Below are positions 1 through 39,046 of a stretch of DNA of 64,000 nucleotides, piece after piece. Location of the stretch: contig JAFWDK010000019.1 of NCBI GenBank assembly GCA_017513085.1, positions 96,001 through 160,000 on the forward strand. The letters run 5' to 3'. The notes below the pieces were generated by a model. It worked only from the letters and a program-made list of their open reading frames with translations, searched no databases and was not told the DNA's origin. Position numbers and translations under genes: made by a program. Numbering within the stretch: the stretch's first letter is position 1; each line of letters begins with the position of its first letter. The DNA is from Clostridiales bacterium. Lineage in GTDB: Bacteria; Bacillota; Clostridia; Saccharofermentanales; Saccharofermentanaceae.

Positions 1-57
1 GGAGTTTCCGAGGCGTGTCTTAGCATCAATTTGTCCGGTCAGTTCAGAAAATGCCAT
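1..57 (-). CDS. holB: DNA polymerase III delta' subunit, 5' end only (runs off window)
   Basis: ATG at 57 reads MAFSELTGQIDAKTRLGNS (F..L.GQ clamp-loader start). Position after tmk-darA matches conserved Firmicute order. Confidence 0.6.
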   Translation of the reverse strand, partial: MAFSELTGQIDAKTRLGNS

Positions 58-60
58 AGC

Positions 61-390
61 TTACATCTTCTCGAAGTGTTCGACGTTGACCACGAACACG
101 GTTGCGCCGCCTACTGTAACATCGACCGGGTACGGCACATAAGAGCCGCCCATGGCAGAAGGCGTAATATTGGTATTGATCGCTGATTGTCTGCTGGAAG
201 AATACTTACGGATCAGATCAAGGACTTCCTGCTGCTTCTCAGCCTCCACAACGATCATCAGGGTCGTGTTTCCGGAACGGAGAAATCCACCTGAAGAATT
301 CAGTTTAGTCACACGGAAACCTGCTTTATTCAACTCCGCCATCAGACGGGGTGTATCCTCATCATGTACAATCGCGAATACCAGTTTCAT
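61..390 (-). CDS. darA: PII-like cyclic-di-AMP receptor (DarA/PstA/YaaQ, DUF970)
   Basis: MKLVFAIVHDED, GGFLRSGNTT and VGGATVFV motifs; start overlaps tmk stop. Confidence 0.9.
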   Translation of the reverse strand: MKLVFAIVHDEDTPRLMAELNKAGFRVTKLNSSGGFLRSGNTTLMIVVEAEKQQEVLDLIRKYSSSRQSAINTNITPSAMGGSYVPYPVDVTVGGATVFVVNVEHFEKM

Positions 391-1010
391 CGTCCTAATA
401 CCTCCCATACAGCAAGACGCACCTTGCGGTAAATCTCGTCAGGCGCATCCATCGCACTGATACACTGTATCCTTTTCTCACTCTTTGCCAGTTCGAGATA
501 ACCATCCCGAACTTTCTTCATGAAGGCGAGTCCCTCAGCTTCCAGCCGGTCTTCCGCACCTTCTCTTCCGTTTCTCCGACGGTAGGCCTCTTCTTCCGAA
601 AGATCGAAAAGAAACGTGATATCCGGCGCCAGGCCTGCCGTACTCCAACGATTCAGATAATCGATGGCGGACAGTTCCAAGCCTCTGGCATATCCCTGAT
701 AGGCAACTGTCGAATCATAGAAACGGTCACAGATCACGACCGTGCCTTTTTCAAGCTCCGGTCTGATCTTCTCTTCTACGATCTGCGCACGCGCTGCTTC
801 ATAAAGCAGGAGCTCCGTACGCGCATGCATCTTGCTGTTCGCTTTATCCAGAAGGATCGTACGGATCTTCTCCCCGATACCGGTCGCTCCGGGTTCACGG
901 ATCAGAATGTACGGGATCCCTTCTTTTCGGAGATCATTCGAAAGCATCTCGATCTGCGTAGATTTTCCGGAACCATCGATTCCTTCAAAGGTAACGAACA
1001 AACCCTTCAT
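387..1010 (-). CDS. tmk: Thymidylate kinase
   Basis: FEGIDGSGKST P-loop; DRFYDSTVAYQG motif. Confidence 0.97.
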   Translation of the reverse strand: MKGLFVTFEGIDGSGKSTQIEMLSNDLRKEGIPYILIREPGATGIGEKIRTILLDKANSKMHARTELLLYEAARAQIVEEKIRPELEKGTVVICDRFYDSTVAYQGYARGLELSAIDYLNRWSTAGLAPDITFLFDLSEEEAYRRRNGREGAEDRLEAEGLAFMKKVRDGYLELAKSEKRIQCISAMDAPDEIYRKVRLAVWEVLGR

Positions 1011-1058
1011 GCTTTCCTTACGACCTCCTTTAACCTTTACAAATATTATATAACATAA

Positions 1059-1559
1059 TCAGTCTAACTTCACAGAATGGATGCTGGCAATTTCCAACCA
1101 GATATCCTTTTCGATCCGCTCGTTATCCTTCTTGATATCTTCGAGCGTTTCTTCCGCAGGACGACGCGGTGCACGGTTCCAGTTCTTACGGGAACGTCCC
1201 TCGCCCTCCCGGTTTTCTCTATGCTCCTGATTATTGCGGTCGTAATCTCTCTTATTGGAGCGGTACTCCCGTCTCTCCTGATTTCTTTCCGCATTCTTCT
1301 CGGAATTTCTCTCCGGATTTCTGGCTCTGTTCTCAGAACGTCTCTCTTCTTTATCCTTCGGCGCTCCGTTCTCATTTTCGTTTCCGGAACGGTTATTGTT
1401 ACGGTATCCGCCATTACGGTTCTGACTATTTCCGTGATTGCCCGGCTTTCTTCTTCTGTTTCTGTTTCCACCGTTACCACTTCTCGGCGCCTGATTTCCC
1501 CCGGTCGCAGAGACTGCCTGATTCTGATGATTCGGCTTATTGTTTTCTTGCTCGGCCAT
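1059..1559 (-). CDS. Hypothetical N/R/E/G-rich disordered protein with short helical C-terminus
   Basis: 166-aa ORF with GGAGG RBS upstream; low complexity, ending EETLEDIKKDNERIEKDIWLEIASIHSVKLD. Confidence 0.7.
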   Translation of the reverse strand: MAEQENNKPNHQNQAVSATGGNQAPRSGNGGNRNRRRKPGNHGNSQNRNGGYRNNNRSGNENENGAPKDKEERRSENRARNPERNSEKNAERNQERREYRSNKRDYDRNNQEHRENREGEGRSRKNWNRAPRRPAEETLEDIKKDNERIEKDIWLEIASIHSVKLD

Positions 1560-1622
1560 TCTTTTCCTCCCATCATCTAAAACGGATTGAACATCTTTAT
1601 TATATCGGTTTTCGGCTTTCTA

Positions 1623-2093
1623 TCAACTGTCAATGTCAGACAAGGGTCCGAAGTACCTGACCTCTTTGCTCCATTTTTCAGGGATCGTCTCCTCTCCCCG
1701 GAGGAATCCGAGCGGCACCTGAACAAAGCCTCTCTCCTCCATGCGCGGATGCGGCACCGTCAGTCTCTTGGTATCGATCCTCTCCTGTCCGTAGGTCAGA
1801 ATATCCAGATCGATCGTTCTTGGCCCCCAATGGATCTTCCTTACACGGTGAAGCGCACTCTCGATCTTCTGACACAAGTCCAGAAGCGCCACCGGCGAAA
1901 GTGAAGTCTCAAGTCTCACACAAATATTCAAAAAAGGATCCTGTTCCGTATACCCGACCGGATCCGTCTCAAAAACCGGAGAACACTTCACATTTGAAAT
2001 CTTCGGATCTTCCCTGAGCATCCGGACGGCTTTTGTAAGATTATCCATCCGGTCTCCCATATTGCTTCCCAAAGAAAGAAACGCTTCTGTCAT
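1623..2093 (-). CDS. folK: HPPK (2-amino-4-hydroxy-6-hydroxymethyldihydropteridine diphosphokinase)
   Basis: LSLGSNMGDR, WGPRTIDLDIL, PHPRM motifs. Confidence 0.96.
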   Translation of the reverse strand: MTEAFLSLGSNMGDRMDNLTKAVRMLREDPKISNVKCSPVFETDPVGYTEQDPFLNICVRLETSLSPVALLDLCQKIESALHRVRKIHWGPRTIDLDILTYGQERIDTKRLTVPHPRMEERGFVQVPLGFLRGEETIPEKWSKEVRYFGPLSDIDS

Positions 2094-2470
2094 GCTCGTC
2101 CCTCCAAGTCATTGCGGGATCTCGTGATCTCCACACCCATGGATTCAAAATCGCCCTTGATTGGTGCAAGTGGTTTTTCAATCTTCACCGTGATCTTTTC
2201 CACTTCGGCAAAAGCACTCATCACATTCTTCATGATTTCTCCGGCCATGTATTCGATCAGATCACACTGCATGGGCTCCACCGTGTTTTTCACGATCTCA
2301 TAGACCTTACTGTAATCGATGGTATCCTCGAGTTTGTCTGTCTTCCACGCCGGGATCGACGGAACAAAAAGAATAAGAGAAACCACAAACGTCTGTCCAT
2401 TTTTCTTCTCTTCTTCCAAAACCCCGCTATGGCTATTGAAGCGCATCGCATTCATGAGAATCTTATCCAT
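2090..2470 (-). CDS. folB: Dihydroneopterin aldolase
   Basis: HSGVLEEEK..GQ.F, DKLEDTIDYS, KPLAPI motifs. Confidence 0.93.
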   Translation of the reverse strand: MDKILMNAMRFNSHSGVLEEEKKNGQTFVVSLILFVPSIPAWKTDKLEDTIDYSKVYEIVKNTVEPMQCDLIEYMAGEIMKNVMSAFAEVEKITVKIEKPLAPIKGDFESMGVEITRSRNDLEGRA

Positions 2471-2474
2471 CGTC

Positions 2475-3344
2475 TTATCCTTCCATTGCCTTCCACATGG
2501 TCAATGCCTGTGCCGTGCCACGCACATCGTGAACGCGCACGGAAGCGGCATGTTCCTTCGCACAGTAACAGGAAACTGCTATCGTTGCTGCGTCCCGGTC
2601 TTCAACCGGCACTCCACCTAATGTCGCGCCGATGAAACGCTTCCGTGAAGCGCCGATCAGCATGGGATATCCTTTATTTGAGAAACAGGAAATGCTTCTG
2701 ACAAAATCGATCGATTCATCGGTCTGTGTTCCGAATCCGATTCCAGGATCGAAAAGGATCGATTGGATCGGGATCCCCGCACGGATCGCCCGCTCCAGTC
2801 CTTTTTCAAAGAAATCCTCGCATTTTTCCCGGATCGTGCCCTCACCGGAAAAGATATCCGGACGCGTATAGTTCGCCATCAGGACAAGTCCGGCATGGTT
2901 GTCGGCTACGACTTTCGCCATATCCGGATCATACATAAGTCCCCAAACATCGTTTATGATAGATGCTCCAAAAGCAAGCGCCTCCCGGGCTGTCTTGCTT
3001 TTATAGGTATCCACGGAGATCGGAACCGACACATGCTGTGCGATCAGCTTCAAAGCAGGGATCAGGCGGGACAGTTCTTCGTCCGCCGAAATCGGCTCCG
3101 CCCCGGGTCTTGTCGATTCGGCGCCAATGTCAATGATATCCGCGCCATCCTTTTCCATCTGGATCGCTCTGGCCAGAGCCTGTTCCGGAACGAAGAAATT
3201 CCCTCCGTCAGAAAAAGAATCCATCGTGACATTCAAAATACCCATTACAAGCGGACGTTCCCGGAAGGAAAGCACCTTGTCACGGAAACACCATTCTTTC
3301 TTGCCGGCATTATCGATCAGTTGTTTTCTCAGTTCGTCTGTCAT
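2475..3344 (-). CDS. folP: Dihydropteroate synthase
   Basis: MGILNVTMDSFSDGG, DIGAESTRPG, DPGIGF, SRKRF, RVHDV motifs. Confidence 0.97.
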   Translation of the reverse strand: MTDELRKQLIDNAGKKEWCFRDKVLSFRERPLVMGILNVTMDSFSDGGNFFVPEQALARAIQMEKDGADIIDIGAESTRPGAEPISADEELSRLIPALKLIAQHVSVPISVDTYKSKTAREALAFGASIINDVWGLMYDPDMAKVVADNHAGLVLMANYTRPDIFSGEGTIREKCEDFFEKGLERAIRAGIPIQSILFDPGIGFGTQTDESIDFVRSISCFSNKGYPMLIGASRKRFIGATLGGVPVEDRDAATIAVSCYCAKEHAASVRVHDVRGTAQALTMWKAMEG

Positions 3345-3363
3345 GCTCGTCCTCAGCTGCTCC

Positions 3364-3987
3364 TCAGATTACATTTCTCGGGCGGTTGATCAGTGCCAGT
3401 GCCTCGGATCTCGTTCTTGCATCCGAGCGGCATCCTCCACGCATTGCAGACGTTACCGTCTTGGAACCCGGCTTACGGATACCGCGCATCGTCATGCAAA
3501 GGTGCTCCGCCTCGATCACCACGCAGACGGAAAGCGCATCGACAGCCTCCTGGATCGTATCCGCAATCTCTGAAGTAAGTCTCTCCTGCAACTGTGGCTT
3601 GCGCGAAAGCGTGTCCACGATCCTGGCAACTTTGGAAAGGCCGAGGATCTTACCGTTTCTCGGTACATACACAACATGTGCTTTGCCATGGAACGGAAGC
3701 AGGTGATGCTCACACATAGAATAAAAAGGAATATCTCCGATCAGGATCATCTCGTCGTTGCCGGTTTCCGTAAATACCTTGACGTCTTTACTGATGTCAC
3801 GATGCAATCCGGAAAACACTTCACCATACATTCTGGCTACACGGTTCGGCGTCTCCTTGAGTCCTTCACGGTCCGGGTCTTCGCCCACCGCAATCAGGAT
3901 CTCTCTGACCGCCTTCTCTATACGCTCCAGATCCATGCCCTTCCGGCTTTCTTCCGGCACACGGAAATCATCATCATACACACTCAT
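3364..3987 (-). CDS. folE: GTP cyclohydrolase I
   Basis: [33 protein letters not shown] motifs. Confidence 0.97.
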
Positions 3988-3999
3988 TTTTTCTTCTCC

Positions 4000-4995
4000 T
4001 CAAACTCCATATTGATGCCTGTATTCCATCGGGGTCATCCCCTTCTGTTTGCGAAATGCCACATTGAATCGCTGCGGACTCGAAAAACCGACCTGCGTCG
4101 CAATACCACTGACCTTGATCTCTTTCTGGGTAAGAAGCCGGCAGGCGGCCTCGATCCGGATCTGCATAAGATAATTCATCGGACTGATACCGAATTCATC
4201 GCGAAAAGCTCTGGTGAAATATCCTTGGCTCAAGAAGACATATGAAGCCGTCTCCGCCACGGTCACGCCACGCTCATAATTCTCATCGAGATAGTCACGG
4301 GCGATCAAGACCAGTTCTCTTGCCTTGCCGTTTTTCACACGGAGGCTCTCCTCCCACTCTTCCCGAAGCGCGCGAGACAAAGTGATCAGAAGTTCCATCG
4401 TCAAGAACTGCATCATCATATCTTTGGCATAAGCATCCTGACGGCTTTCCTGCATGATCCGCTCTGCCAGCGTACCGATCGCCGTACGGCTTTTGCCCGA
4501 AATGATCAGATATGACGTATCGATCTTGGTATCCTTTTCACCCTGGGCAAAATCCAGGAAATATTCCAAAGGAAGCTGGGAAACATTTTCCTGAAGGAAA
4601 GGAACCGTAGGTCCGCCCTTCAGCCTTCCGTTATCCATCGGCTGAGACTCCTTCGGCTTCGAAAGCAAAGCTTCCTGTGCTTTTTGAATATCAGAAGAAA
4701 AACCGAAATACAGAACGACCATGTCTGCCGGGCCTTCCAGTACCCGGACAGAGTGTGTCACCTGCGGACGGATCACCAATGTGGAACCCTTCGTTACCAG
4801 GACGGTCTTTCCATTGATGTTGAATTCGCACTTTCCTCTTCTTAGATACATCAGCTCGTGGGAGGTATGTCTACTGGCAGTCGGGAAAGGCGTAGAGGTC
4901 TCGTAACAGTGTTCCACACCTTCAAACACTACGGGAATCGAGCCGGAAAACTCAAGAAGACTCTTCTCAAATGCCGGTAACAGATCTTCTACCAT
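4000..4995 (-). CDS. AraC family transcriptional regulator with N-terminal cupin
   Basis: RHTSHELMY...RPQVTHS cupin; C-terminal double HTH (YFTRAFR...IATQVGFSSPQRFNVAFRK..GMTPMEYR); AGGAGG RBS. Confidence 0.93.
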   Translation of the reverse strand: MVEDLLPAFEKSLLEFSGSIPVVFEGVEHCYETSTPFPTASRHTSHELMYLRRGKCEFNINGKTVLVTKGSTLVIRPQVTHSVRVLEGPADMVVLYFGFSSDIQKAQEALLSKPKESQPMDNGRLKGGPTVPFLQENVSQLPLEYFLDFAQGEKDTKIDTSYLIISGKSRTAIGTLAERIMQESRQDAYAKDMMMQFLTMELLITLSRALREEWEESLRVKNGKARELVLIARDYLDENYERGVTVAETASYVFLSQGYFTRAFRDEFGISPMNYLMQIRIEAACRLLTQKEIKVSGIATQVGFSSPQRFNVAFRKQKGMTPMEYRHQYGV

Positions 4996-5013
4996 GTTGT
5001 ACCTCCTGATCGT

Positions 5014-7500
5014 TTATGTTAAAAAGCGGATATTGTCTATATAGATTGCGCCTGAGCGCTGTCTGTCAAAAATCGTGAAGCGAAGGTCACTGATCTCCAT
5101 CTCATCGAAAGACGACCAGTTCAGGGTGATCGTCTGCCAGCGGAGCCCGATCGCGATCGTGGCCTCACCGCGGAAGCCGGTGATCTGCATGGTCTTCTCT
5201 GCCTGATCCGGATTAAAGACATCCAGACAGATCCTTCTGGCTTTGGAGAAGCGCAGCGGCGCCATGCAGGACGCATAGGAAAGCACCGGTCCGAAAGACA
5301 AAAGACTGTTCTCGGTCTCATATTCGATACGAAGAGAAGCCGCACCCTGGGTCTTGTTCATGACCTCACGGAAGATCTCGGCCTTTCCTTTCGTCACCTG
5401 ATATGTCGGTAGTTTTTCAAAATCACTATCCCAGGTTCTCTTTCCGATAAAAGACAGGTCTTCGCATGCGGCAAATGTCAGGTCCGGGCAATACTCGGAC
5501 GGGATGCGGTCGAAGCGGAACGGAAGCACCGGAATATCGATACGGTTACGGAATGTAGCCTGATGCGGGATCGGGCTGTATCCGTATGTAACGCCTACCG
5601 GGTTCTCGATCTCATCGTTCCATACCATAACGCGTACGCCATGCAGTATACGAGCCTGAGCCGGAACATACACGCGGCTTTCGTCGCAAATAGCAAAACC
5701 GCGAAGGATCGCTTCGTTTTCGGCAAGACGCAGACCGTCGACTGTATTATCAAAAGAAAGCATGATCTTGTTTCCGATCACTTCCACACCGACACACTCC
5801 GGCGAGGAAGAAGGCATCTTCGGGGTAAAGTGCAATCCTAACGCGATGCAGGAAAGTCTTCTTCCCAAAGCAAAGGATACAGCTTTATCGGTAAGCAGCA
5901 TATCGTGCTGGCTCAAGATTCCGATCGGCATCGGGAAACTTCTCCTGATCGCCGAAAGGCGTTCATTAAACTCCACATGCTGATACGGTTTTTCCGGATC
6001 GATTGCATCCGGATGCAGTCCCAGTATGATAAAAGACGGTACCTGAAGCTTATCTTCGATCTCACGCGGACCAAACACACGAGCCAGATCGATCAGAAGC
6101 TGTCTGACCATCGGCACATATTCTTTTCCGATCTGTGCATCCGAAGCATCAGGAGCAAACACGATACCACGGATACTGCTGTCACAAAGCGGTGCCAGTT
6201 TATGGTTATACAGTACGGACATCAGATCCTCCGGTCCCACAAGTGGCCGGTGGCTGGCTTCCGACACAAGAGTCTCATCTTCAACTTCAGCCTTCTGAAG
6301 AATAGATGAGATCAGGTCATGGTTGCTCTTGATCTCTCTGGCCACTTCCTCATCCGGGAATTGGAGAGGCTTCTCATCCTTCTTGTCCGGATCCGTTTCT
6401 GTATCTTCCAGAGGAGCTTCATAATCCAATTCAGTCCCGGCTTTTCCGTTATCCTCAGACTCTTCACTCTTCTCAGCCTCCTCGGACTTCTCGTCAGCTG
6501 TGTTCTCAGCTGCGTTTTCTTCCGTCTTTTCGTTCTCGTCTTCAGACGAATCTTCTTCAGATTTCTTATCCGGCAGTCCGCCCTGATCGTCTTCAAAAGC
6601 AAGCGCGCCTTCCGGATCGATCGGTACCTCGCAAGTTTCCTCATCTTCGAAAACAAAGGATTCCTCACTTGTTGCCTCACCGTCTTCATCCGACTTTGTA
6701 TTGTCTTTCAGAAGGCTGCCTGAAAGGATCGCGTTCTTCTTCTCCTTCAGACGGAGCACATTGGCGCGGAAACCTTCCACATCAAAATACAGATTGCGTT
6801 CGGAAAGATAATTCTTAATGACTTCGCTACTGTCCACACCATCATGTGAAAGCCAACGGTAGATCGGCGCATACTCTTCCGCCAGATCCAGGATACCTAC
6901 CGGATAGTGCAGTTGTTCAGCCAGATGATATGCAAAGGAAAAAGCAACTGATGAAACTCTGGCCAACTCTCTGGTATCACGGATGCGGATCCAGTTGTTC
7001 TGCTGTTGCATGAAGATCGGCTCATACGAGAGTTTCTCGATATCTTTTAAAGCATTTCTCTCCGGTGTATAAAAACGGATCAGCGGCATAACCTGCTTCT
7101 TGAGCGGCGTTCTCGGCGCTGCGCTCTCAGCGATCGATGTTCCGAAAGGCTTTCCACCGAACATGACCCATACGTCACCGCATCGGCAGTCTTCGATCGT
7201 CAGTTTATTGGTCAGAGACCGGAATTCTAAAGTATAGGCGTCCGTGGAAGACCGGTACGGCGGCATCTCAAATTGGAAACTGCCGTCTTCTTCCGATGTG
7301 GTCTCCAGGCTCAGGATAACACCATAGTCTGTATCCAGCTTGGATACTTTACGTCCATCCGTAGGATCCTTCTTAACTTCCAAAGTTACCGGAACATTCG
7401 GTTTTCCAACCTCTCCGCGAAGTTTTACAGGTACGCCCTGCTGAAAGACCATACCCGGTGAGATCCACGAAGGAAGACGTATATCATTCGTTTGCGTCAT
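5014..7500 (-). CDS. Degenerate sialate O-acetylesterase-like protein with acidic insertion and C-terminal carbohydrate-binding-like domain
   Basis: RLPSWISPGMVFQQ, GDVWV, SSVAFSFAYHLAEQLHYPVGI, LYNHKLAPL..SIRGIV and LPFRFD match the SIAE scaffold; catalytic motifs substituted. Confidence 0.75.
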   Translation of the reverse strand: MTQTNDIRLPSWISPGMVFQQGVPVKLRGEVGKPNVPVTLEVKKDPTDGRKVSKLDTDYGVILSLETTSEEDGSFQFEMPPYRSSTDAYTLEFRSLTNKLTIEDCRCGDVWVMFGGKPFGTSIAESAAPRTPLKKQVMPLIRFYTPERNALKDIEKLSYEPIFMQQQNNWIRIRDTRELARVSSVAFSFAYHLAEQLHYPVGILDLAEEYAPIYRWLSHDGVDSSEVIKNYLSERNLYFDVEGFRANVLRLKEKKNAILSGSLLKDNTKSDEDGEATSEESFVFEDEETCEVPIDPEGALAFEDDQGGLPDKKSEEDSSEDENEKTEENAAENTADEKSEEAEKSEESEDNGKAGTELDYEAPLEDTETDPDKKDEKPLQFPDEEVAREIKSNHDLISSILQKAEVEDETLVSEASHRPLVGPEDLMSVLYNHKLAPLCDSSIRGIVFAPDASDAQIGKEYVPMVRQLLIDLARVFGPREIEDKLQVPSFIILGLHPDAIDPEKPYQHVEFNERLSAIRRSFPMPIGILSQHDMLLTDKAVSFALGRRLSCIALGLHFTPKMPSSSPECVGVEVIGNKIMLSFDNTVDGLRLAENEAILRGFAICDESRVYVPAQARILHGVRVMVWNDEIENPVGVTYGYSPIPHQATFRNRIDIPVLPFRFDRIPSEYCPDLTFAACEDLSFIGKRTWDSDFEKLPTYQVTKGKAEIFREVMNKTQGAASLRIEYETENSLLSFGPVLSYASCMAPLRFSKARRICLDVFNPDQAEKTMQITGFRGEATIAIGLRWQTITLNWSSFDEMEISDLRFTIFDRQRSGAIYIDNIRFLT

Positions 7501-7744
7501 AGTTTTGACACCTTTCCAAAATTACACATATCTATTCTATCTTACCTATTATACGACAACTTTTCCAAACTTGCCCGAATTTCCTGAAGAATACTTAGAA
7601 TATGCAAAGAAATCATATTCTGAAATCTATGTTCGCCCCGGCAGTGCTTTTTACGCCAAGAATATTTAAATAATCTTTAGTTTCAAAAAGCCAGGAAGTA
7701 CAATCCAAGTGCATGGTATTTCCGGGGGGTGAGGAGGTGAATAA

Positions 7745-8026
7745 GTGGAAGATATCGTGTGTATGGGGAGAGTCTTGCGAACTCTTCGCCGGGCACGAGA
7801 ATTATCCCAGGTCGAAATCGCATTAAAGGCAGAACTGAACCTGTCTTACTACAGCCGGATTGAACGTGGGGAAGCCAATCCGACGATAAAAACAGTATTA
7901 AAGATCTTAGCCACATTGGACGTGCCGTATGAAGACTACTGGGGTATGGTCTCGCTCGAAAAGCAGCACTTTAATGCTGATCCGCTAACTGACGAAGATC
8001 ACGGGTCAGAAGATGTCCGGAAATAG
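7745..8026 (+). CDS. XRE/Cro-C1 family HTH protein
   Basis: LSQVEIA..AELNLSYYSRIERGEANPTIKT; GAGGAGG RBS before GTG. Confidence 0.88.
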   Translation: MEDIVCMGRVLRTLRRARELSQVEIALKAELNLSYYSRIERGEANPTIKTVLKILATLDVPYEDYWGMVSLEKQHFNADPLTDEDHGSEDVRK

Positions 8027-8110
8027 TAATATGCCGTGATACCAGTCCATGAAATCAAAGATCATATGACATCATATCCGCTGGTCACGGCATCTTTTCA
8101 AATATAGGAA

Positions 8111-8890
8111 TCAACCCAGAGGTGCAATCACCAATTCAATACCGAAATCACGGATCTCTTGTGCCTGCTCATCCGAGATACCGGAATCCGTGATCAGAAC
8201 ATCAATGCGATCCGCCGGAATAAACGAAGAGGTCGAATCCGCATTCAGTTTGCTGGAATCCACCAGTGCGATCCTGCGCTTGCACTTCTCGGCGAAGCGC
8301 TTCTTCAGTTCCAGTTCATAGAAGTTATGTCCGGTAAGTCCGGAAGTCAAGGAGAATCCGTTTCCCGATACAAAATAACTGTCGCCACTGATACGGCGAA
8401 GCATCTCTTCGCAAAGCAGTCCTTCGATCGCTCCGGAATGCGGGCGAAGCACACCGCCCACCAGGACCGTGCGGAAATTACTGTATCTTTGGATCTCCAT
8501 AGCTGTATGGATTCCGTTCGTTACGATAGTAAGATTTTCCAGTTTGCTGATAAATGGAATCATATGAAAAGTTGTGGAACTTGCATCGATGAAGATCGTC
8601 TCACCTTCACGGACAAACTTTCCGGCCTCTCTGCCGATCGCCGTCTTCTCCGCGACACACATCACGCTTCGGCGCATATAGTTTTCCGGTGCGGCAGATT
8701 GCTTTACGGAATCGGAGATCGACGCTCCACCATGAAAACGCACGATCGCGCCTTCACGTTCGAGGTCACGAAGATCACTTCTGACCGTCGCTCCGGTCAC
8801 ACCCAATCTCTCTTCGAGATCGGTCGTTGCCACTCGGCTTTCTTTTTCCAGGATTTCGAGGATTTTCTTCCTTCTGTCAACATTAATCAT
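8111..8890 (-). CDS. DeoR/GlpR family sugar-responsive regulator
   Basis: RRKKIL...GVTGATVRSDLRDLE...RFHGGA and IFIDASSTT; true start ATG 8890 (ORF-track extension overlaps the tRNA). Confidence 0.93.
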   Translation of the reverse strand: MINVDRRKKILEILEKESRVATTDLEERLGVTGATVRSDLRDLEREGAIVRFHGGASISDSVKQSAAPENYMRRSVMCVAEKTAIGREAGKFVREGETIFIDASSTTFHMIPFISKLENLTIVTNGIHTAMEIQRYSNFRTVLVGGVLRPHSGAIEGLLCEEMLRRISGDSYFVSGNGFSLTSGLTGHNFYELELKKRFAEKCKRRIALVDSSKLNADSTSSFIPADRIDVLITDSGISDEQAQEIRDFGIELVIAPLG

Positions 8891-8933
8891 ATCATTCCCA
8901 CCCCTCGTCCTATTCTTTCGTAGAACGCCACAT

Positions 8934-8962
8934 ATGATAAACGCGTTTCTATCGTTTGTCAA
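8934..8962 (-). promoter_or_regulatory. Sigma-A promoter of DeoR gene
   Basis: TTGACA-17 nt-TATCAT on minus strand. Confidence 0.65.
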
Positions 8963-8993
8963 CGTTTTCTTTTCATTTGCTTTCATTACGAAA

Positions 8994-9031
8994 TAAAAAA
9001 AAGACTGTTTCCACATTTGGGAACAGTCTTT
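8994..9031 (-). terminator. Intrinsic terminator after tRNA-Gln
   Basis: AAGACTGTTCCC-loop-GGAAACAGTCTT followed by T-run. Confidence 0.8.
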
Positions 9032-9105
9032 TGGCTGCCGAACTAGGATTCGAACCCAGACAGACGGTGCCAGAAACCGGAGTGCTACCCTTACACAATT
9101 CGGCA
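9032..9105 (-). tRNA. tRNA-Gln(CUG)
   Basis: Acceptor stem TGCCGAA/TTCGGCA, loop TT-CTG-GC, GGTTCGAATCC T-arm, encoded CCA. Confidence 0.93.
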
Positions 9106-9127
9106 ATGTTGTTAATCAACGCTAGAA

Positions 9128-9156
9128 AGTATACCAAAAGATTTCGGCAAGTGCAA
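9128..9156 (-). promoter_or_regulatory. Sigma-A promoter of tRNA-Gln
   Basis: TTGCAC-17 nt-TATACT with TGn extension. Confidence 0.65.
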
Positions 9157-9167
9157 TACCTTTTTCT

Positions 9168-9785
9168 TTATTTCCCGGAAGGCCTTGCAGTCGGCATATC
9201 CGGAGCGCCGGAAAGAGGTTTCATCAACCCGAGTTCCTCTGCTTTCTTTCTTACCAACTCAATGTCTTTCCAGAGTTTGATACGCTCGTTATTGTTCCGA
9301 AGGATGTATGCCGGATGAAACGTCGGCATAATATAATACCCGTTCTTCTCCAGGAATTGTCCACGGATCTCCGTCATCTTAGCCATCTTATCCCCGGTAA
9401 AAAGAGTGTAGGCAGTCTTTCCCAGAAGCACTATGATCTTCGGTTTTGAGATCAGGATCTGCTTACCGAGAAGTTTCTTGCAGGCCTTCGCTTCTGCTTC
9501 AGTAGGCACGCGGTTCTCCGGCGGGCGGCACTTCACCACGTTTGCAATATGAAAGTCTTCCATAGAAAAACCCTGCGCATCCAAAAGAAGCTGTAAGAGC
9601 TGACCTGCCTGGCCGACAAACGGGAGACCCTGCTCATCCTCGTTGGCACCGGGACCTTCTCCGATAAACATGATCGGAGCCACCACGCTGCCACGATAGA
9701 TCACAACGTTTTTTCTGGTTTCGGAAAGCGGACATGCCTGACAATTCCGACACTCTTCAACAAAATCGTTCCAGGATATTTTCAT
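9168..9785 (-). CDS. Uracil-DNA glycosylase family 4 (Fe-S)
   Basis: Cxx[33 protein letters not shown] motifs. Confidence 0.93.
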
Positions 9786-33878: not shown

Positions 33879-36533
33879 TTACTTTTTCAAAGCATTGATT
33901 CTCGTCGTAACATTATCAAGCATCTCCTGATACTTCGCCTGCTTTTCACGTTCAGCGGCAATAACTTTCTCCGGAGCTTTCTTGACGAACTCCTCATTGG
34001 CGAGCTTACCGTTTACCCGCTTCATTTCACCTTCAAGTCTTTCCTTCTCTTTACCGAGGCGTTCCAGTTCCTTATCGATATCGATCAGATCCTCAAGCGG
34101 GATATAGATCTCACCTGCGGAACAAACACAAGCAACCGCTGTATCCGGAATACCTTCCTTATCAGCCTTGGTCTCCACTTCGGTAACGTTAGCAAGACGC
34201 TGCAGGAATGCTTTACCGTCAATAAACATGTTGCGGTTCTTCTCTTCGGAAGAAACAAGGATCATGCCGATCTTACGGGACGGAACAACACCCATATCTG
34301 TTCTTACATTACGGATGGAACGGATCGCATCCATAAGGATCTCCATCTGCTTCTCTTCCTCCAGGAATACTTCGTTCTCACGATACTCCGGCCAGTCAGA
34401 GATCATGATCGACTCGTCCTTCTCCTTCAGAACAAGGTAAGTATACACTTCTTCCGTCAGGAACGGCATGAACGGGTGCAGGAGCTGCATGGAACGACCG
34501 AGAACATCGTTAAGGATGTACTGCGCTTCTTTTCTCGTGCTGCATTCCTTATCGAAGAGACGAGACTTCGCAATCTCGATATACCAGTCACAGTATTCTT
34601 CCCAGATGAAGGAGTTGATCTTCGAGAGCGCCACACCGAATTCATAGTTATCGAAGTTATCGGTGACTTCCTTGATGACCTGATTCATACGGGACAAGAT
34701 CCACTTATCTTCAAGGGTATACTTAGAAGGATCCACATCATCAAAAGTAAGATCTTCTTCGCAATTCATAAGAACGAAGCGCATCGCGTTCCAGATCTTA
34801 TTACCGAAGTTTCTTCCGGCTTCGATCTTATCCTGCTGGAAACGCTGATCGTTACCCGGCGCATTACCGGTAACCAGTGCATAACGCAGGGCATCTGCAC
34901 CAAACTGGTCGATGATCTCCAACGGATCGATTCCGTTACCCAAAGACTTACTCATCTTTCTGCCCTGAGAGTCACGAACCAGACCATGGATCAGAACAGT
35001 ATCAAAAGGTGTCTCCTTCATGTGTGCGCAACCTGCCACGATCATACGGGAAACCCAGAAAGTGATGATATCGTATCCGGTAACCAGAGTATTCGTCGGA
35101 TAATAGCGCTTCAGGTCTGCTGTCTCTTCCGGCCAGCCCAATGTAGAGAAAGGCCACAATGCCGATGAGAACCATGTATCAAGAGTATCAGGATCCTGAC
35201 GCATCGGCTTTCCGCACTTCGGACAAACCGCGCTGTCTTCCTTGGTCACAACCAGTTCTCCACAATCATCGCAGTAGAAAGCCGGAATACGGTGACCCCA
35301 CCACAGCTGACGGGAGATACACCAGTCACGGATATCCTCCATCCAGTTGAAATAGTTCTTCTCGAATCTTTCCGGAACGAACTTTGTCTTACCGGAGCGT
35401 ACAGCTTCGATCGCCGGTTCTGCCAGAGTCTTCATCTTTACGAACCACTGCAGGGAAACTCTCGGTTCAACAGTCGTACCGCAACGGTAGCAGGTACCTA
35501 CGTTATGGGCATGCGGCTCTACCTTGATGAGGAAACCGCCCTCTTCGAGATCCTTGACGATCTCTTTTCTCGCTTCATAGCGATCCATGCCGGCATACTT
35601 CGGATAATCATCCGTGATCTTCGCGTCTTCAGTAAGAACCGTGATCACTTCGAGGTTATGGCGAAGTCCTACTTCAAAGTCATTCGGGTCGTGTGCCGGA
35701 GTGATCTTAACGACACCGGTACCGAATTCGATATCCACATAACTGTCTGCAATGACAGGGATCTTCCTTCCAACGAGCGGGAGAACGAGCATCTTGCCGA
35801 CAACATCCTTATAACGCTCATCTTTCGGGTTTACAGCTACCGCAGTATCACCGAGGAGAGTCTCCGGACGGGTAGTAGCAAGTTCCAGATATCCTGAACC
35901 ATCCTCGAAAGGATAACGCAAATGCCAGAAAGAGCCCTGCTGATCTTCGTATTCAACTTCGGCATTAGAGATCGAAGTCAGGCATTTCGGGCACCAGTTG
36001 ATGATGCGCTCGCCACGATAGATCAGGCCTTCGTTATAGTACTTGATAAAAACTTCTTTTACAGCTTTAGAACAGCCTTCGTCCATGGTGAAACGCTCAT
36101 GGGACCAGTCACATGAAGAACCGATCTTCTTAAGCTGTTCAACAATACGTCCGCCATACTGTTTCTTCCATTCCCATGCACGCTCCAGGAACTTATCTCT
36201 TCCCAGATCGTCCTTGGTCAGGCCTTCTTCTTTCATCGTCGCTACGATCCTCGCCTCAGTTGCGATAGATGCGTGGTCTGTTCCCGGAACCCAAAGAGTC
36301 TCGAATCCCTTCATTCTCTTATATCTTACAAGGATATCCTGAAGAGTATTATCCAGCGCATGACCCATATGCAGCTGACCGGTGATATTCGGCGGCGGCA
36401 TGACAATACAAAAAGATTCTTTGCTGGGATCGACGACCGGCTTAAAGTATCCTTTCTCCATCCATGTGGAATAGAGTCTACTCTCCGCTTCCTTCGGATC
36501 AAAAGCCTTGCTGATATTATCTGTACGTGCCAT
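33879..36533 (-). CDS. valS: Valine--tRNA ligase
   Basis: PPPNITGQLHMGH, DWCISRQLWWGH, KMSKS, C-terminal coiled coil. Confidence 0.98.
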   Translation of the reverse strand: MARTDNISKAFDPKEAESRLYSTWMEKGYFKPVVDPSKESFCIVMPPPNITGQLHMGHALDNTLQDILVRYKRMKGFETLWVPGTDHASIATEARIVATMKEEGLTKDDLGRDKFLERAWEWKKQYGGRIVEQLKKIGSSCDWSHERFTMDEGCSKAVKEVFIKYYNEGLIYRGERIINWCPKCLTSISNAEVEYEDQQGSFWHLRYPFEDGSGYLELATTRPETLLGDTAVAVNPKDERYKDVVGKMLVLPLVGRKIPVIADSYVDIEFGTGVVKITPAHDPNDFEVGLRHNLEVITVLTEDAKITDDYPKYAGMDRYEARKEIVKDLEEGGFLIKVEPHAHNVGTCYRCGTTVEPRVSLQWFVKMKTLAEPAIEAVRSGKTKFVPERFEKNYFNWMEDIRDWCISRQLWWGHRIPAFYCDDCGELVVTKEDSAVCPKCGKPMRQDPDTLDTWFSSALWPFSTLGWPEETADLKRYYPTNTLVTGYDIITFWVSRMIVAGCAHMKETPFDTVLIHGLVRDSQGRKMSKSLGNGIDPLEIIDQFGADALRYALVTGNAPGNDQRFQQDKIEAGRNFGNKIWNAMRFVLMNCEEDLTFDDVDPSKYTLEDKWILSRMNQVIKEVTDNFDNYEFGVALSKINSFIWEEYCDWYIEIAKSRLFDKECSTRKEAQYILNDVLGRSMQLLHPFMPFLTEEVYTYLVLKEKDESIMISDWPEYRENEVFLEEEKQMEILMDAIRSIRNVRTDMGVVPSRKIGMILVSSEEKNRNMFIDGKAFLQRLANVTEVETKADKEGIPDTAVACVCSAGEIYIPLEDLIDIDKELERLGKEKERLEGEMKRVNGKLANEEFVKKAPEKVIAAEREKQAKYQEMLDNVTTRINALKK

Positions 36534-36630
36534 CTTATCCCTCCAAATCTGAAATAGAAAACGCTCCATGCTTGCTTATTTTAAGCGGAAAAGCACGAGC
36601 GTTTCCAAAAGAATATTTTACTACAAATAC

Positions 36631-38316
36631 TTATTTCTGGCTATCTCTTTTTCTTATTTCTGCGCGCTTGATCTTTCCGCTAGTGGTCTTCGGCAACTCA
36701 TCGACGTATTCCACGACTCGCGGATACTTATAAGGCGCCGTCGTCTTCTTAACATGGTTCTGAAGCGTCTTGGTCAATTCCTCCGACGGGGAATAACCCT
36801 TAGCCAGCACGATAGTAGCCTTTACGGCAAATCCTCTGACCGGATCCGGAACGCCTGTTACCGCGCACTCCAGTACAGCTGGGTGTTCCATCAAGGCACT
36901 CTCGACCTCAAAAGGTCCGATACGGTAACCGGAAGACTTGATTACGTCATCCACACGACCGACATACCAGAGGAAACCGAGCTCATCGCGGTAAGCGGTA
37001 TCACCTGTATGATACAGTCCGTCATGCCAGGATTTCTCCATCGCTTCCGGGTTCTCCTCGTAGCGCAGAAGCAATCCAACCGGACGCCCACCGTACTCTT
37101 CGCTTGTACGGATGCAGATCTCACCTGTCACACCGGTCGGGCACTCGTTGCCATCCGGATCGACTACTGCAACATGGAAGCCGGGTACCGGGTAACCCAT
37201 GGAACCGGTTCTTGGAAGTACCCACGGGAAATATGTTCCGCAAACAACGGATGTCTCGGACTGGCCGAAACCTTCGTAGATCTTGCAACCGGTATTCTTC
37301 AGCCACTGGTTATATACCTCAGGATTCAACGCCTCACCGGCTGTGCAGCAATGCTTGAGATGTGAAAAGTCATATCCCTCGAAGCTCTCTTTGATCATGA
37401 AACGGTACATCGTCGGCGGTGCGCAGAAAGTCGTGATCTTATAATCGCAGATCTTCTTCAGGATATCCGCACCATTAAACTTATCGAAATCATAGATGAA
37501 CAATGTCGCTTCACCGAACCACTGTCCATAGAACTTACCCCACATGCACTTCATCCAGCCTGTATCGGAGATCGTAAAGTGAAGCTTTCCGTCTTCTACA
37601 CGATGCCAGAATACACCCGTAAACAAATGTCCCAGCGGGAGGGTATGGTCATGGAGAACCATCTTCGGGTATCCCGTCGTTCCGGACGAGAAGCACATCA
37701 GCATCGGGTCAGTTACGATCGTTCCCTCTTCGCCTGTTGGTCTTGTCCACTCGTCACTCTGCTTGGCAACTTCCGCATCAAAATCGATCCAGCCGTCTTT
37801 CTTCTTGCCCCATGTTACGCAACGGATGACCTCATGATCGTACTGATCCTGATCTTCGTCAAAACGCTCTGTGCAATCATCATCGCCCGTGATGACCGCC
37901 ATCTTGATATGTGCGCTGTTGATACGGTAAACATAGTCTTTCGCCATCAACTGGTTGGTCGCCATAACCGTTACGGCACCGATTTTATGGAGAGCCAGTA
38001 CGGAAAACCAGAACTGGTATCCTCTCTTCAAAACCAGAAGAACGCGGTCGCCCTTCTTGATGCCCTGGCTCTTAAAGAAGTTCGCTGTCATGTTGGAGTA
38101 TTTTCTGACGTCTCCAAACGTAAAACGCTTTTCTTCGTTATGCTTGCTGACCCAGAGGATCGCCGGCTTATCCGGTGTTCTCTCTGCAATCACATCCATA
38201 ACATCGTACGCAAAGTTAAATGTTTTCGGATAAGTAACCTTGTAGTTCTTCTGTAAATCGTCCAGTGTAACGAAATCGTCTCTGTTTCGTCCTACAAAAT
38301 CTTCATAAATCGCCAC
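36631..38316 (-). CDS. AMP-forming acyl-CoA synthetase
   Basis: FSSGTTGYPK, EGFGQSET, YHTGD, GYRIGPFEVES, PKTTSGKIKR. Confidence 0.92.
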   Translation of the reverse strand: MAIYEDFVGRNRDDFVTLDDLQKNYKVTYPKTFNFAYDVMDVIAERTPDKPAILWVSKHNEEKRFTFGDVRKYSNMTANFFKSQGIKKGDRVLLVLKRGYQFWFSVLALHKIGAVTVMATNQLMAKDYVYRINSAHIKMAVITGDDDCTERFDEDQDQYDHEVIRCVTWGKKKDGWIDFDAEVAKQSDEWTRPTGEEGTIVTDPMLMCFSSGTTGYPKMVLHDHTLPLGHLFTGVFWHRVEDGKLHFTISDTGWMKCMWGKFYGQWFGEATLFIYDFDKFNGADILKKICDYKITTFCAPPTMYRFMIKESFEGYDFSHLKHCCTAGEALNPEVYNQWLKNTGCKIYEGFGQSETSVVCGTYFPWVLPRTGSMGYPVPGFHVAVVDPDGNECPTGVTGEICIRTSEEYGGRPVGLLLRYEENPEAMEKSWHDGLYHTGDTAYRDELGFLWYVGRVDDVIKSSGYRIGPFEVESALMEHPAVLECAVTGVPDPVRGFAVKATIVLAKGYSPSEELTKTLQNHVKKTTAPYKYPRVVEYVDELPKTTSGKIKRAEIRKRDSQK

Positions 38317-38319
38317 GGA

Positions 38320-38883
38320 TCAAATATCTCCCTTCATAACTATCGCCAGGAATTTACACGGCTTGTTGTTATTTGCCTTCATGGCATGCGGATAATCGGA
38401 ATTGAAGTAGACGCTGTCGCCTTCGTTCAGTTCATATACGATATCTCCGATATAGAAAGTCATAGAACCTTCGACCACATAGTCGAATTCCTGTCCCTCG
38501 TGGGCGTGCTGGGTCGGCTTTTCAATATCGTTCGGCTCAACGGTAACCAGGAAAGGATCTGCAATTTTCTTTCTGAAAGTAAATGCCAGATGCTTATAGT
38601 TATACGCTGCACGGCGGTCGATCTCGAATCCTTCTCCCTTTCTTACCACGCAGGCAATGGAGAGCTTCGGTGAGTCGCCTACCATGATGTCGACCATATC
38701 GACACCGAGAATCACCGCGACATTATTAAGAAAAGAGACAGAAAAGTCCTTCTTTCCCTGTTCATAAAGAATGTAATCTTCTTCGGATACTTCACATCTT
38801 GCTGCCATGGTGGCCACATCGATCTCTTCGATTTCACGAAGTGCGGCAATTCGCTCGCCGATCTGACGCAATTGATCTGTCAT
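38320..38883 (-). CDS. XRE-HTH plus cupin regulator
   Basis: IGERIAALRE HTH; HAHEGQEF...EGDSVYF..PH cupin; AGGAGG RBS. Confidence 0.9.
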   Translation of the reverse strand: MTDQLRQIGERIAALREIEEIDVATMAARCEVSEEDYILYEQGKKDFSVSFLNNVAVILGVDMVDIMVGDSPKLSIACVVRKGEGFEIDRRAAYNYKHLAFTFRKKIADPFLVTVEPNDIEKPTQHAHEGQEFDYVVEGSMTFYIGDIVYELNEGDSVYFNSDYPHAMKANNNKPCKFLAIVMKGDI

Positions 38884-39046
38884 AGCTATTCCTCCTGATA
38901 CATAATAGGCATAATTCCGGATAATTTCCCAGAGTATTAGTCCTATTATAATAGATTTCACCTTTCAAAGTGTCAACTGACAAAATCATCAAATGTATTG
39001 TATAATGAAAAAACAATAAGATTTCGAGCATTTTTCGGAGGTTTTT

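Follow-up and report, generated by a model that had tools for sequence, protein, structure and literature searches.

Dedicated protein regulators encoded next to the operon of a vitamin pathway are known in bacteria, with BirA, BioQ, NrtR, NiaR and PdxR following this logic. In the accessible part of a review-type genomic study (PMC6593275) these proteins are named for other vitamins, while for vitamin B9 only the tetrahydrofolate (THF) riboswitch, and no transcription factor, is given. The dedicated cis-regulators so far known for folate genes are the THF riboswitches THF-I (RF01831) and THF-II (the 'folE motif'), which are RNA and not protein; the THF-II class is commonly located upstream of folE, according to PMC6800512. 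Classical AraC/XylS regulators, such as Escherichia coli AraC, RhaR and BgaR, consist of a cupin domain, a helical dimerisation region and a double helix-turn-helix (HTH), and their genes lie beside presumed targets. Here we describe a locus in which a regulator of the same architecture has neighbours that make a vitamin, folate, instead of serving sugar or aromatic catabolism. It lies in a 64,000-nt stretch of a Clostridiales bacterium genome of the family Saccharofermentanaceae (contig JAFWDK010000019.1, positions 96,001–160,000; this whole stretch is hereafter called the window) and comprises six genes: one for an 828-aa esterase-like protein, one for an AraC-family regulator (hereafter AraC), and folE, folP, folB and folK (Table 1). 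As further differences from the classical members, the window regulator is encoded within the operon, upstream of folE, and its sensor domain has an invariant His/Glu/His set and is without a close solved relative in sequence.

The interpretation that we favour, with a confidence only slightly better than even, is that the locus is one operon in which AraC, inherited from the ancestor of two families, senses a ligand and is dedicated to the local control of the pterin branch, and in which the pseudo-esterase gene is a lineage-specific, probably non-catalytic first gene. Judged from sequence and comparison, the six genes would be transcribed together from a -10-box promoter located ~47 nt upstream of the 828-aa gene. 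AraC, encoded within the operon, would adjust transcription of the pterin branch and its own in response to a small-molecule signal, a role suggested by association; p-aminobenzoate, or a pterin or folate end product, would be candidate ligands. The 828-aa protein would be a cytoplasmic descendant of the CE20/sialic acid esterase (SIAE) group that lost the catalytic Ser and His, gained an acidic insert, kept a domain resembling a carbohydrate-binding module (CBM) and, in the window's family only, became part of the operon at its 5′ end. It is clearly functional, given the strong purifying selection on it, but probably acts by binding and not by ester hydrolysis, and its link to folate control is so far one of co-transcription only. 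The comparative signal linking AraC to fol is solid, and AraC in this unit is a promising candidate for a protein dedicated to regulating folate synthesis. The preliminary description of the locus, made from the sequence alone, had called an AraC regulator tied to fol genes unusual, and this was borne out: an orthologue precedes folE-P-B-K in two families, and literature searches on AraC with folate genes and on Saccharofermentans with folate, mostly at the level of abstracts, turned up no described protein regulator of folate synthesis.

The older part of this arrangement can be recognized outside the window's family. In all five genomes of the sister family, a full-length AraC orthologue (53–56% identity, 98–99% coverage) directly precedes folE-folP-folB-folK without the 828-aa gene, and in all five AraC-folEPBK and the esterase-like gene are located on different contigs. 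The gene preceding the sister-family AraC is of SAF/RcpC type in four genomes and an unrelated divergent open reading frame (ORF) in the fifth, and a promoter-like TGnTAT(G/C)AT is found ~20 nt ahead of the AraC start. Since the sister family has AraC-folEPBK without the esterase-like gene, AraC-folEPBK is the older unit, and because the two orthologues are unlinked in 5/5 genomes, AraC-fol works without an adjacent 828-aa protein. Comparison of gene orders suggests that the esterase-like gene moved ahead of AraC-folEPBK once, in the ancestor of the window's family. The gene folE was found in five of five sister-family genomes, in two of five genomes of a second other family and in none of six of the remaining one. 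In the second other family (small genomes, n = 2), folE follows tig-clpP-clpX and no AraC is present. The next-best AraC relatives in the class sample (17 loci, 31–35% identity) had no fol gene within ~1.5 kb. As a side observation, FolB and FolK are fused at two loci of the small-genome family (L132, 7709–8581; L137, 1087–2460), one of them with an added isochorismatase domain, and folP was not detected near folE in either.

The orthologue of the 828-aa protein in three other families of the order (27–33% identity, 694–766 aa) has a different genomic context. No AraC or fol gene was found within ~14 kb of it in 10/10 genomes; in 8/10 a Radical_SAM_N2/DUF2344 pair or fusion precedes it, with RNase G in 3, and in 9/10 it is followed by valS on the same strand. 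In the window genome these ancestral neighbours of the esterase-like gene are scattered: valS (33879–36569, minus strand) is preceded by genes for an AMP-binding enzyme and a cupin protein (36631–38316 and 38320–38961, both minus), and the DUF2344 gene is ~75 kb away.

Within the window's family the six genes are a tight unit. To collect related loci, a single genome of each species was scanned for two pseudo-esterase-clade peptide motifs, and the best 80 of 134 confirmed relatives were retained. Their record titles point to metagenome genomes of rumen, horse faeces and digesters and to one isolate; an isolate record, Ruminococcaceae bacterium KHP2 (locus L104), has the 828-aa gene followed by AraC and folEPBK. 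The sample is biased to the pseudo-esterase clade, by whose own motifs it was found. All six genes occur on one strand in 78/80 loci, and the remaining two end at a contig edge, in agreement with the single operon proposed earlier, which is thus a tight and deeply conserved unit. The order is kept down to 38–45% identity of the 828-aa protein and ~50% of AraC; across the family (loci L041–L130) identity is 80–98% for FolE and 50–96% for AraC, and goes down to 34–65% for FolP, FolB and FolK. The gap between the 828-aa gene and AraC has a median of 17 nt (range 7–161; at most 30 nt in 59/79 loci) and that between AraC and folE a median of 15 nt (at most 30 nt in 71/79). Insertions occur at the UDG/DeoR, DeoR/828-aa gene and folK/tmk junctions (folK to tmk, 417–2363 nt), and none was found within the six-gene core of the 80 loci. 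The block from the divergent XRE gene through the 828-aa gene, AraC and folE-P-B-K to orf166 and tmk is kept in 10/10 same-genus genomes, and a DeoR gene lies upstream on the same strand in 69/80 loci. In an even sample of the class (399 scored genomes), all 11 further genomes of the window's family, as well as the window's own, have the 828-aa gene followed by AraC, folE and folP.

The anatomy of the locus points in the same direction. The ORF list confirmed the six genes of the preliminary description and their positions, all on the minus strand, with gaps from the 828-aa gene to folK of 18, 12, 19 and 4 nt, followed by a 4-nt overlap. Shine-Dalgarno sequences are present at the junctions, AGGAGG ahead of AraC and GAGGAG ahead of folE, the latter overlapping the AraC stop. 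The remark that no obvious terminator separates the genes also held: 10 terminator-like sites were counted in 1–9200 vs. 8.7 ± 2.5 in shuffled sequence, and the three on the minus strand of the cluster (5716–5702, 5240–5223 and 4614–4602) are 5-bp stems within coding sequence. Because of the short gaps, the Shine-Dalgarno sites and the lack of credible terminators, the locus fits one operon. The identity of the fol genes is clear, as each passes the curated equivalog cut-off of its NCBIfam TIGR model (bits/cut-off: folE, TIGR00063, 234.7/181.6; folP, TIGR01496, 281.3/162.6; folB, TIGR00525, 108.7/72.15; folK, TIGR01498, 148.4/54.1).

A likely promoter was recognized ahead of the first gene. 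The consensus -10 box is accompanied by a weak match, GGGCAA, at the -35 position. GTATAAT occurs at most 130 nt upstream of the 828-aa gene in 65/79 loci and TATAAT in five more; the nine loci without a -10 box are those where the DeoR gene overlaps the 828-aa gene by 4 nt. By comparison, TATAAT was found at most 150 nt before AraC in 1/78 loci and before folE in 0/84. This distribution fits a single putative promoter ahead of the 828-aa gene. The Rfam scan of the whole window gave two tRNAs only above the gathering score and no THF riboswitch, and as the gaps before folE and AraC measure 12 and 18 nt, there is no room for one there. A search of the whole genome with RF01831 gave no match, a result that is uninformative, with control genomes equally without a match. 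In contigs from four RNA-labelled runs of low depth all six genes were present. In each of the four runs hardly any contig sequence falls in the intergenic bin 7507–7747, and two contigs, one each from two studies, stop at 7488–7489, although contigs cannot show transcript ends.

The regulator itself has the domain composition of the AraC/XylS family. Pfam models HTH_18 (2.1e-22; 79.7 bits, cut-off 33.6), HTH_AraC (1.9e-17), AraC_binding (1.1e-7) and Cupin_2 (3e-7) were matched, giving an N-terminal cupin sensor/dimerisation region and a C-terminal double HTH, as expected of the family. The AlphaFold model of AraC has a predicted local distance difference test (pLDDT) value of 79. In Foldseek searches its regulatory half resembled E. 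coli AraC (1xja, TMt 0.74; 2arc, 0.68) as well as BgaR and RhaR, and its DNA-binding half matched AraC-type domains at TMt 0.78–0.86; by sequence, solved relatives were found for the DNA-binding half only. In 57 AraC orthologues from both families the HTH recognition helices are nearly invariant; the cupin residues H43, E47 and H81 are invariant, and H46 is present in at least 90%. This pattern is reminiscent of a cupin metal site or, failing that, of a fixed pocket for a ligand. Separately, many relatives (among them L059, L066, L067, L072, L080, L084 and L089) have a second AraC-family gene on the opposite strand, 22–35% identical to the operon AraC and located between DeoR and an XRE/esterase-like gene; it is absent from the window.

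Several results weigh against this interpretation. No common AraC operator was found: a search for 10-mers with one mismatch in 65 dereplicated upstream regions of both families returned -10-box variants only, and the -10-anchored information content of 55 dereplicated promoters had no conserved column upstream of about -16. At genus level two footprints occur, GCGAAA at the -35 position and CGAAC(G/A)(T/A)AG ~70 nt upstream, which are assignable neither to AraC nor to the divergent XRE. A non-consensus internal promoter is possible. In the nine DeoR-overlap loci the transcript must start further upstream, because a -10 box is lacking; the DeoR gene may be co-transcribed with the esterase-like gene there, and DeoR could be the relevant regulator. 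The RNA contigs are fragmentary: the one that bridges the 828-aa gene and AraC (4547–5125) comes from a run whose RNA nature is a guess, and the one over the AraC/folE junction (3987/4000) extends into AraC by 23 letters, where 31 are needed to count as bridging. In addition, the 80 loci are uninformative on genomes without the pseudo-esterase because they were found by its clade motifs. Collinearity across the family extends to the wider surroundings (RsuA, Smr, UDG, DeoR ... tmk), so that part of the kept adjacency is general synteny, and the relatives are non-independent samples.

This collinearity brings up a different explanation, which we regard as rather improbable, namely that AraC does not control the fol genes, that their adjacency is inherited gene order, and that AraC targets other genes or the 828-aa gene alone. 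It is consistent with a gene order shared within the family over the whole 12 kb, with the failure to detect a common operator, and with a third family in which two genomes have folE close to tmk and no AraC there, but such an account sits poorly with the survival of AraC-folE in two families with differing upstream genes (cpaB-like vs. pseudo-esterase). AraC regulators commonly sit beside carbohydrate-active genes, which was also counted in its favour. Yet the AraC-folE gaps (median 15 nt) are too short for a promoter, and insertions were found in the flanks of the core and never at the AraC-folE junction.

The favoured interpretation, a local AraC regulator of the pterin branch, leaves the first gene to be explained. 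The closest described relatives of its product are CE20 enzymes (XacXaeA/XAC1771, 7kmm; PpCE20_II, 9ega; Fl8CE20_II, 9h4u) and SIAE (8f9o), which share with it an N-terminal beta-sandwich, a split SGNH-type domain and a following beta-sandwich; bacterial CE20 proteins and the 828-aa protein also have a common insertion point in the SGNH domain. According to the accessible part of PMC12313940, CE20 enzymes use the nucleophilic Ser of GQSNM (Ser112 of Fl8) and the His of a DxH motif, and a role is described there for the ancillary beta-sandwich domain of bacterial CE20. In comparison with CE20 and SIAE, the window protein has no GQSNM Ser and no YQGES block, and its DxH segment is deleted; in comparison with CE20 it has an acidic disordered stretch in place of the ancillary domain, an extra CBM-like C-terminal domain and no signal peptide. 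The context differs likewise, a folate operon here vs. a polysaccharide utilisation locus in the CE20 case.

The 828-aa protein gave no Pfam or NCBIfam match, even at E<10. A profile of 27 family members was matched by PDB sequences 9ega (7.7e-65), 9h4u (3.9e-64) and 7kmm (1.1e-57), and by mammalian SIAE at E ~1e-30. Its AlphaFold (AF2) model, computed from 83 sequences (pLDDT 82; predicted template modelling score, pTM, 0.78), retrieved 7kmm first in Foldseek (E 2e-28, TMt 0.83), then 9ega, 9h4u and SIAE 8f9o-r. The SGNH domain and flanking beta-sandwiches are thus CE20 by both profile and fold. The CE20 profile matches stop at about residue 665, and the C-terminal domain that follows resembled CBM11 (1v0a, E 9.9e-6, TMt 0.50), CBM4-2 (3jxs, 0.48) and CBM22 (4xup, 0.50). 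There are 213 detectable homologues; the best 120 of the 213 are unnamed or called 'hypothetical protein' and come from Clostridiales-type metagenome genomes. A homologue was found in 36/40 genomes sampled from the window's order. The protein has no hydrophobic leader, and CE20 homology starts from residue ~4 vs. ~20 in the crystallised chains; since the N-terminus opens with a CE20-homologous strand, the protein is presumably cytoplasmic.

The active site is degenerate throughout the clade. In block I of the window protein, G115-G-K-P-F119 replaces GQSNM, and Ser at the catalytic column was found in 0/73 window-clade members vs. 7/10 distant orthologues. In block III, FAPDASD replaces WYQGES(N/D). 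The DxH segment of block V (12–16 residues with (I/L)HP) is deleted in the window protein and in all 17 clade members of the alignment, and the six commonest clade strings of block V among those listed (28/73 members) are all of the short HD(L/M)LLP..K form. As only 3/10 distant orthologues keep the (I/L)HP histidine, and 2/10 both Ser and His, erosion of catalysis is widespread in the cytoplasmic branch; 3/10 of them match the Pfam SASA model (PF03629), and the window protein does not. No esterase activity by the canonical mechanism is predicted for the 828-aa protein. The acidic insert (35 Glu and 17 Asp in 139 aa) lies at the same point of the SGNH domain where bacterial CE20 has the beta-sandwich ancillary (X448) domain, which is not present; its length (minimum/median/maximum) is 11/94/178 aa in the clade vs. 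3/6/42 aa in the distant orthologues. At the same time, the dN/dS of the closest pair was 0.047 for the 828-aa gene, 0.031 for AraC, 0.027 for folE and 0.068–0.144 for folP, folB and folK, so that the 828-aa gene is under strong purifying selection and is not decaying. The clade has invariant motifs of its own near the former active site (KDPTDGR, RCGDVW, FAPD, HDLLLP and HFTPKMP). The profile search, predicted fold and motif counts all agree with the description of the protein as SIAE-like, non-catalytic and CBM-bearing.

The preliminary description had further proposed that this protein and AraC form a sensor/regulator pair: having bound a carbohydrate or metabolite, the non-catalytic esterase-like protein would signal to AraC by direct contact and so couple folate synthesis to that signal. 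We find this unlikely. The two genes are adjacent in 79/79 loci where both were seen, and the clade-specific invariant motifs and the dN/dS of 0.047 fit a retained binding cleft; in the sampled genomes loss of Ser also tracks linkage to AraC (Ser in 0/73 linked vs. 7/10 unlinked proteins), though this is a single evolutionary event. Nevertheless, catalytic erosion is found in unlinked orthologues too (His kept in 3/10, Ser and His in 2/10), AraC carries a complete cupin sensor domain itself, and the sister family has both orthologues on different contigs in 5/5 genomes with AraC still heading folEPBK. The predicted adjacency of both genes with fol was found in the window's family, while in the sister family AraC-fol alone is kept and the esterase-like gene is elsewhere, an outcome that the preliminary description had itself named as refuting its idea; the pair as such is not supported. 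Co-folding of the 828-aa protein (residues 6–265 and 421–828 as two chains) with AraC gave a score of 0.00 and a mark of 0.32 and, run without controls, yields no verdict either way. More doubtful still is a specific form of the idea, in which the former acetylesterase would be a non-catalytic receptor for an (acetylated) carbohydrate or related metabolite and would work with AraC, so that folate synthesis is turned on by a nutrient signal together with a pathway metabolite. If true, a vitamin pathway otherwise known under riboswitch control would have a protein switch with two inputs and a pseudoenzyme as helper, in hosts that are plant-fibre-associated gut bacteria.

The folate pathway elsewhere in the genome bears on the ligand of AraC. 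Genes for folC and DHFR are present outside the operon, and the operon has no gene for the dihydroneopterin-triphosphate pyrophosphatase step. With PF00425 no PabB was found in the genome (99.4% complete), in which the sole chorismate-binding enzyme is TrpE, in a trpE-trpG-trpD cluster; the loci concerned are on contigs C6 (locus L168), C26 (L169) and C19 (L173). The organism may, from its gene content, be dependent on external p-aminobenzoate. Because no PabB-type enzyme was found and import is possibly needed, p-aminobenzoate is a plausible ligand of AraC. The missing pyrophosphatase step and PabB would also give room to the least probable of the explanations considered, in which the 828-aa protein itself takes part in folate or pterin metabolism, by binding or delivering p-aminobenzoate, a pterin or folylpolyglutamate or by new chemistry at its remodelled cleft: it would explain the fixed place at the operon head, the presumed co-transcription with fol genes in all family members seen, and the strong constraint with clade-specific invariant His, Cys and Asp residues, but all structural neighbours are carbohydrate esterases and CBMs, with no folate- or pterin-binding fold among them, and orthologues elsewhere occupy a housekeeping context between radical-SAM/DUF2344 and valS. 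A missing folate enzyme, e.g., dihydroneopterin triphosphate phosphatase, was rejected as an identity for the protein, no supporting fold or motif having been found.

Sulfonamides and trimethoprim act on folate synthesis, and gut communities exchange folate as a vitamin; in the literature covered by the searches, the dedicated bacterial regulators of its synthesis are riboswitches. An AraC regulator encoded next to its target operon is a familiar arrangement, as is a pseudoenzyme that descends from a hydrolase; what may be new is a protein regulator with folate synthesis as its target pathway and, as predicted from sequence, the CE20-derived, cytoplasmic and catalytically stripped architecture. 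A protein regulator held to folE-P-B-K in two families would add a new type of regulon, and its ligand and operator would help to predict, for gut and rumen Clostridia, which of them produce folate and at what times. Since p-aminobenzoate synthesis may be lacking in this genome, a switch that senses the substrate is an idea open to testing. The 828-aa protein, a carbohydrate esterase fold that is under strong selection despite the loss of its catalytic residues, is of interest for the evolution of pseudoenzymes, and CAZy-style annotation would otherwise name it an esterase.

Table 1. Features of the AraC-folEPBK locus in the window, with the segments of the 828-aa protein.
Feature	Position	Strand	Basis or remark
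Consensus -10 box TATAAT, likely operon promoter	7548–7553 (GTATAAT 7548–7554)	-	47 nt upstream of the ATG of the 828-aa gene
828-aa CE20/SIAE-like pseudo-esterase gene, first gene of the operon	5014–7500	-	ORF and translation
Residues 1–273: N-terminal beta-sandwich and first half of SGNH-like domain	6682–7500	-	Alignment
Residues 274–412: acidic insert, predicted disordered	6265–6681	-	pLDDT <50 over 274–392 and 403–412
Residues 413–668: second SGNH-like half and CE20-type C-terminal beta-sandwich	5497–6264	-	Alignments
Residues 669–828 and stop: extra C-terminal CBM-like beta-sandwich	5014–5496	-	Foldseek
AraC-family regulator gene, 331 aa	4000–4995	-	Pfam HTH_18, AraC_binding, Cupin_2
folE, GTP cyclohydrolase I, 207 aa	3364–3987	-	PF01227 5.2e-74; TIGR00063
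folP, dihydropteroate synthase, 289 aa	2475–3344	-	PF00809 9.3e-75; TIGR01496
folB, dihydroneopterin aldolase, 126 aa	2090–2470	-	PF02152 3.4e-32; TIGR00525
folK, hydroxymethyldihydropterin pyrophosphokinase, 156 aa	1623–2093	-	PF01288 2.8e-40; TIGR01498
Promoter-like TTGATA-16-TATAAT at the folK 3′ end	1599–1626	-	11/12 consensus match only

Some features of the flanks were recorded as well. The promoter-like site at the 3′ end of folK may be the start of a separate downstream unit (orf166, tmk), as judged from its consensus match. The first gene of this putative unit, orf166 (1059–1559, minus strand), encodes an Arg/Asn/Glu-rich low-complexity protein without a family match; its final ~30 residues are conserved, and in the sister family a 360–398-aa ORF in the same position ends in this stretch too. 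On the other side, a gene for a 93-aa XRE-type HTH protein (7745–8026, plus strand; HTH_3 1.9e-13) is divergent from the 828-aa gene. It is restricted to closer relatives, and its product may act locally on the operon promoter as a second regulator. Between the two genes, at 7597–7621, lies an 8-bp inverted repeat, AGAATATG/CATATTCT, that is not conserved in the nearest relative. Further upstream, the long ORF of the DeoR-family gene (8111–9106, minus strand) overlaps tRNA-Gln(CTG) (9032–9105, minus strand), and the true DeoR start is therefore probably near 8890.

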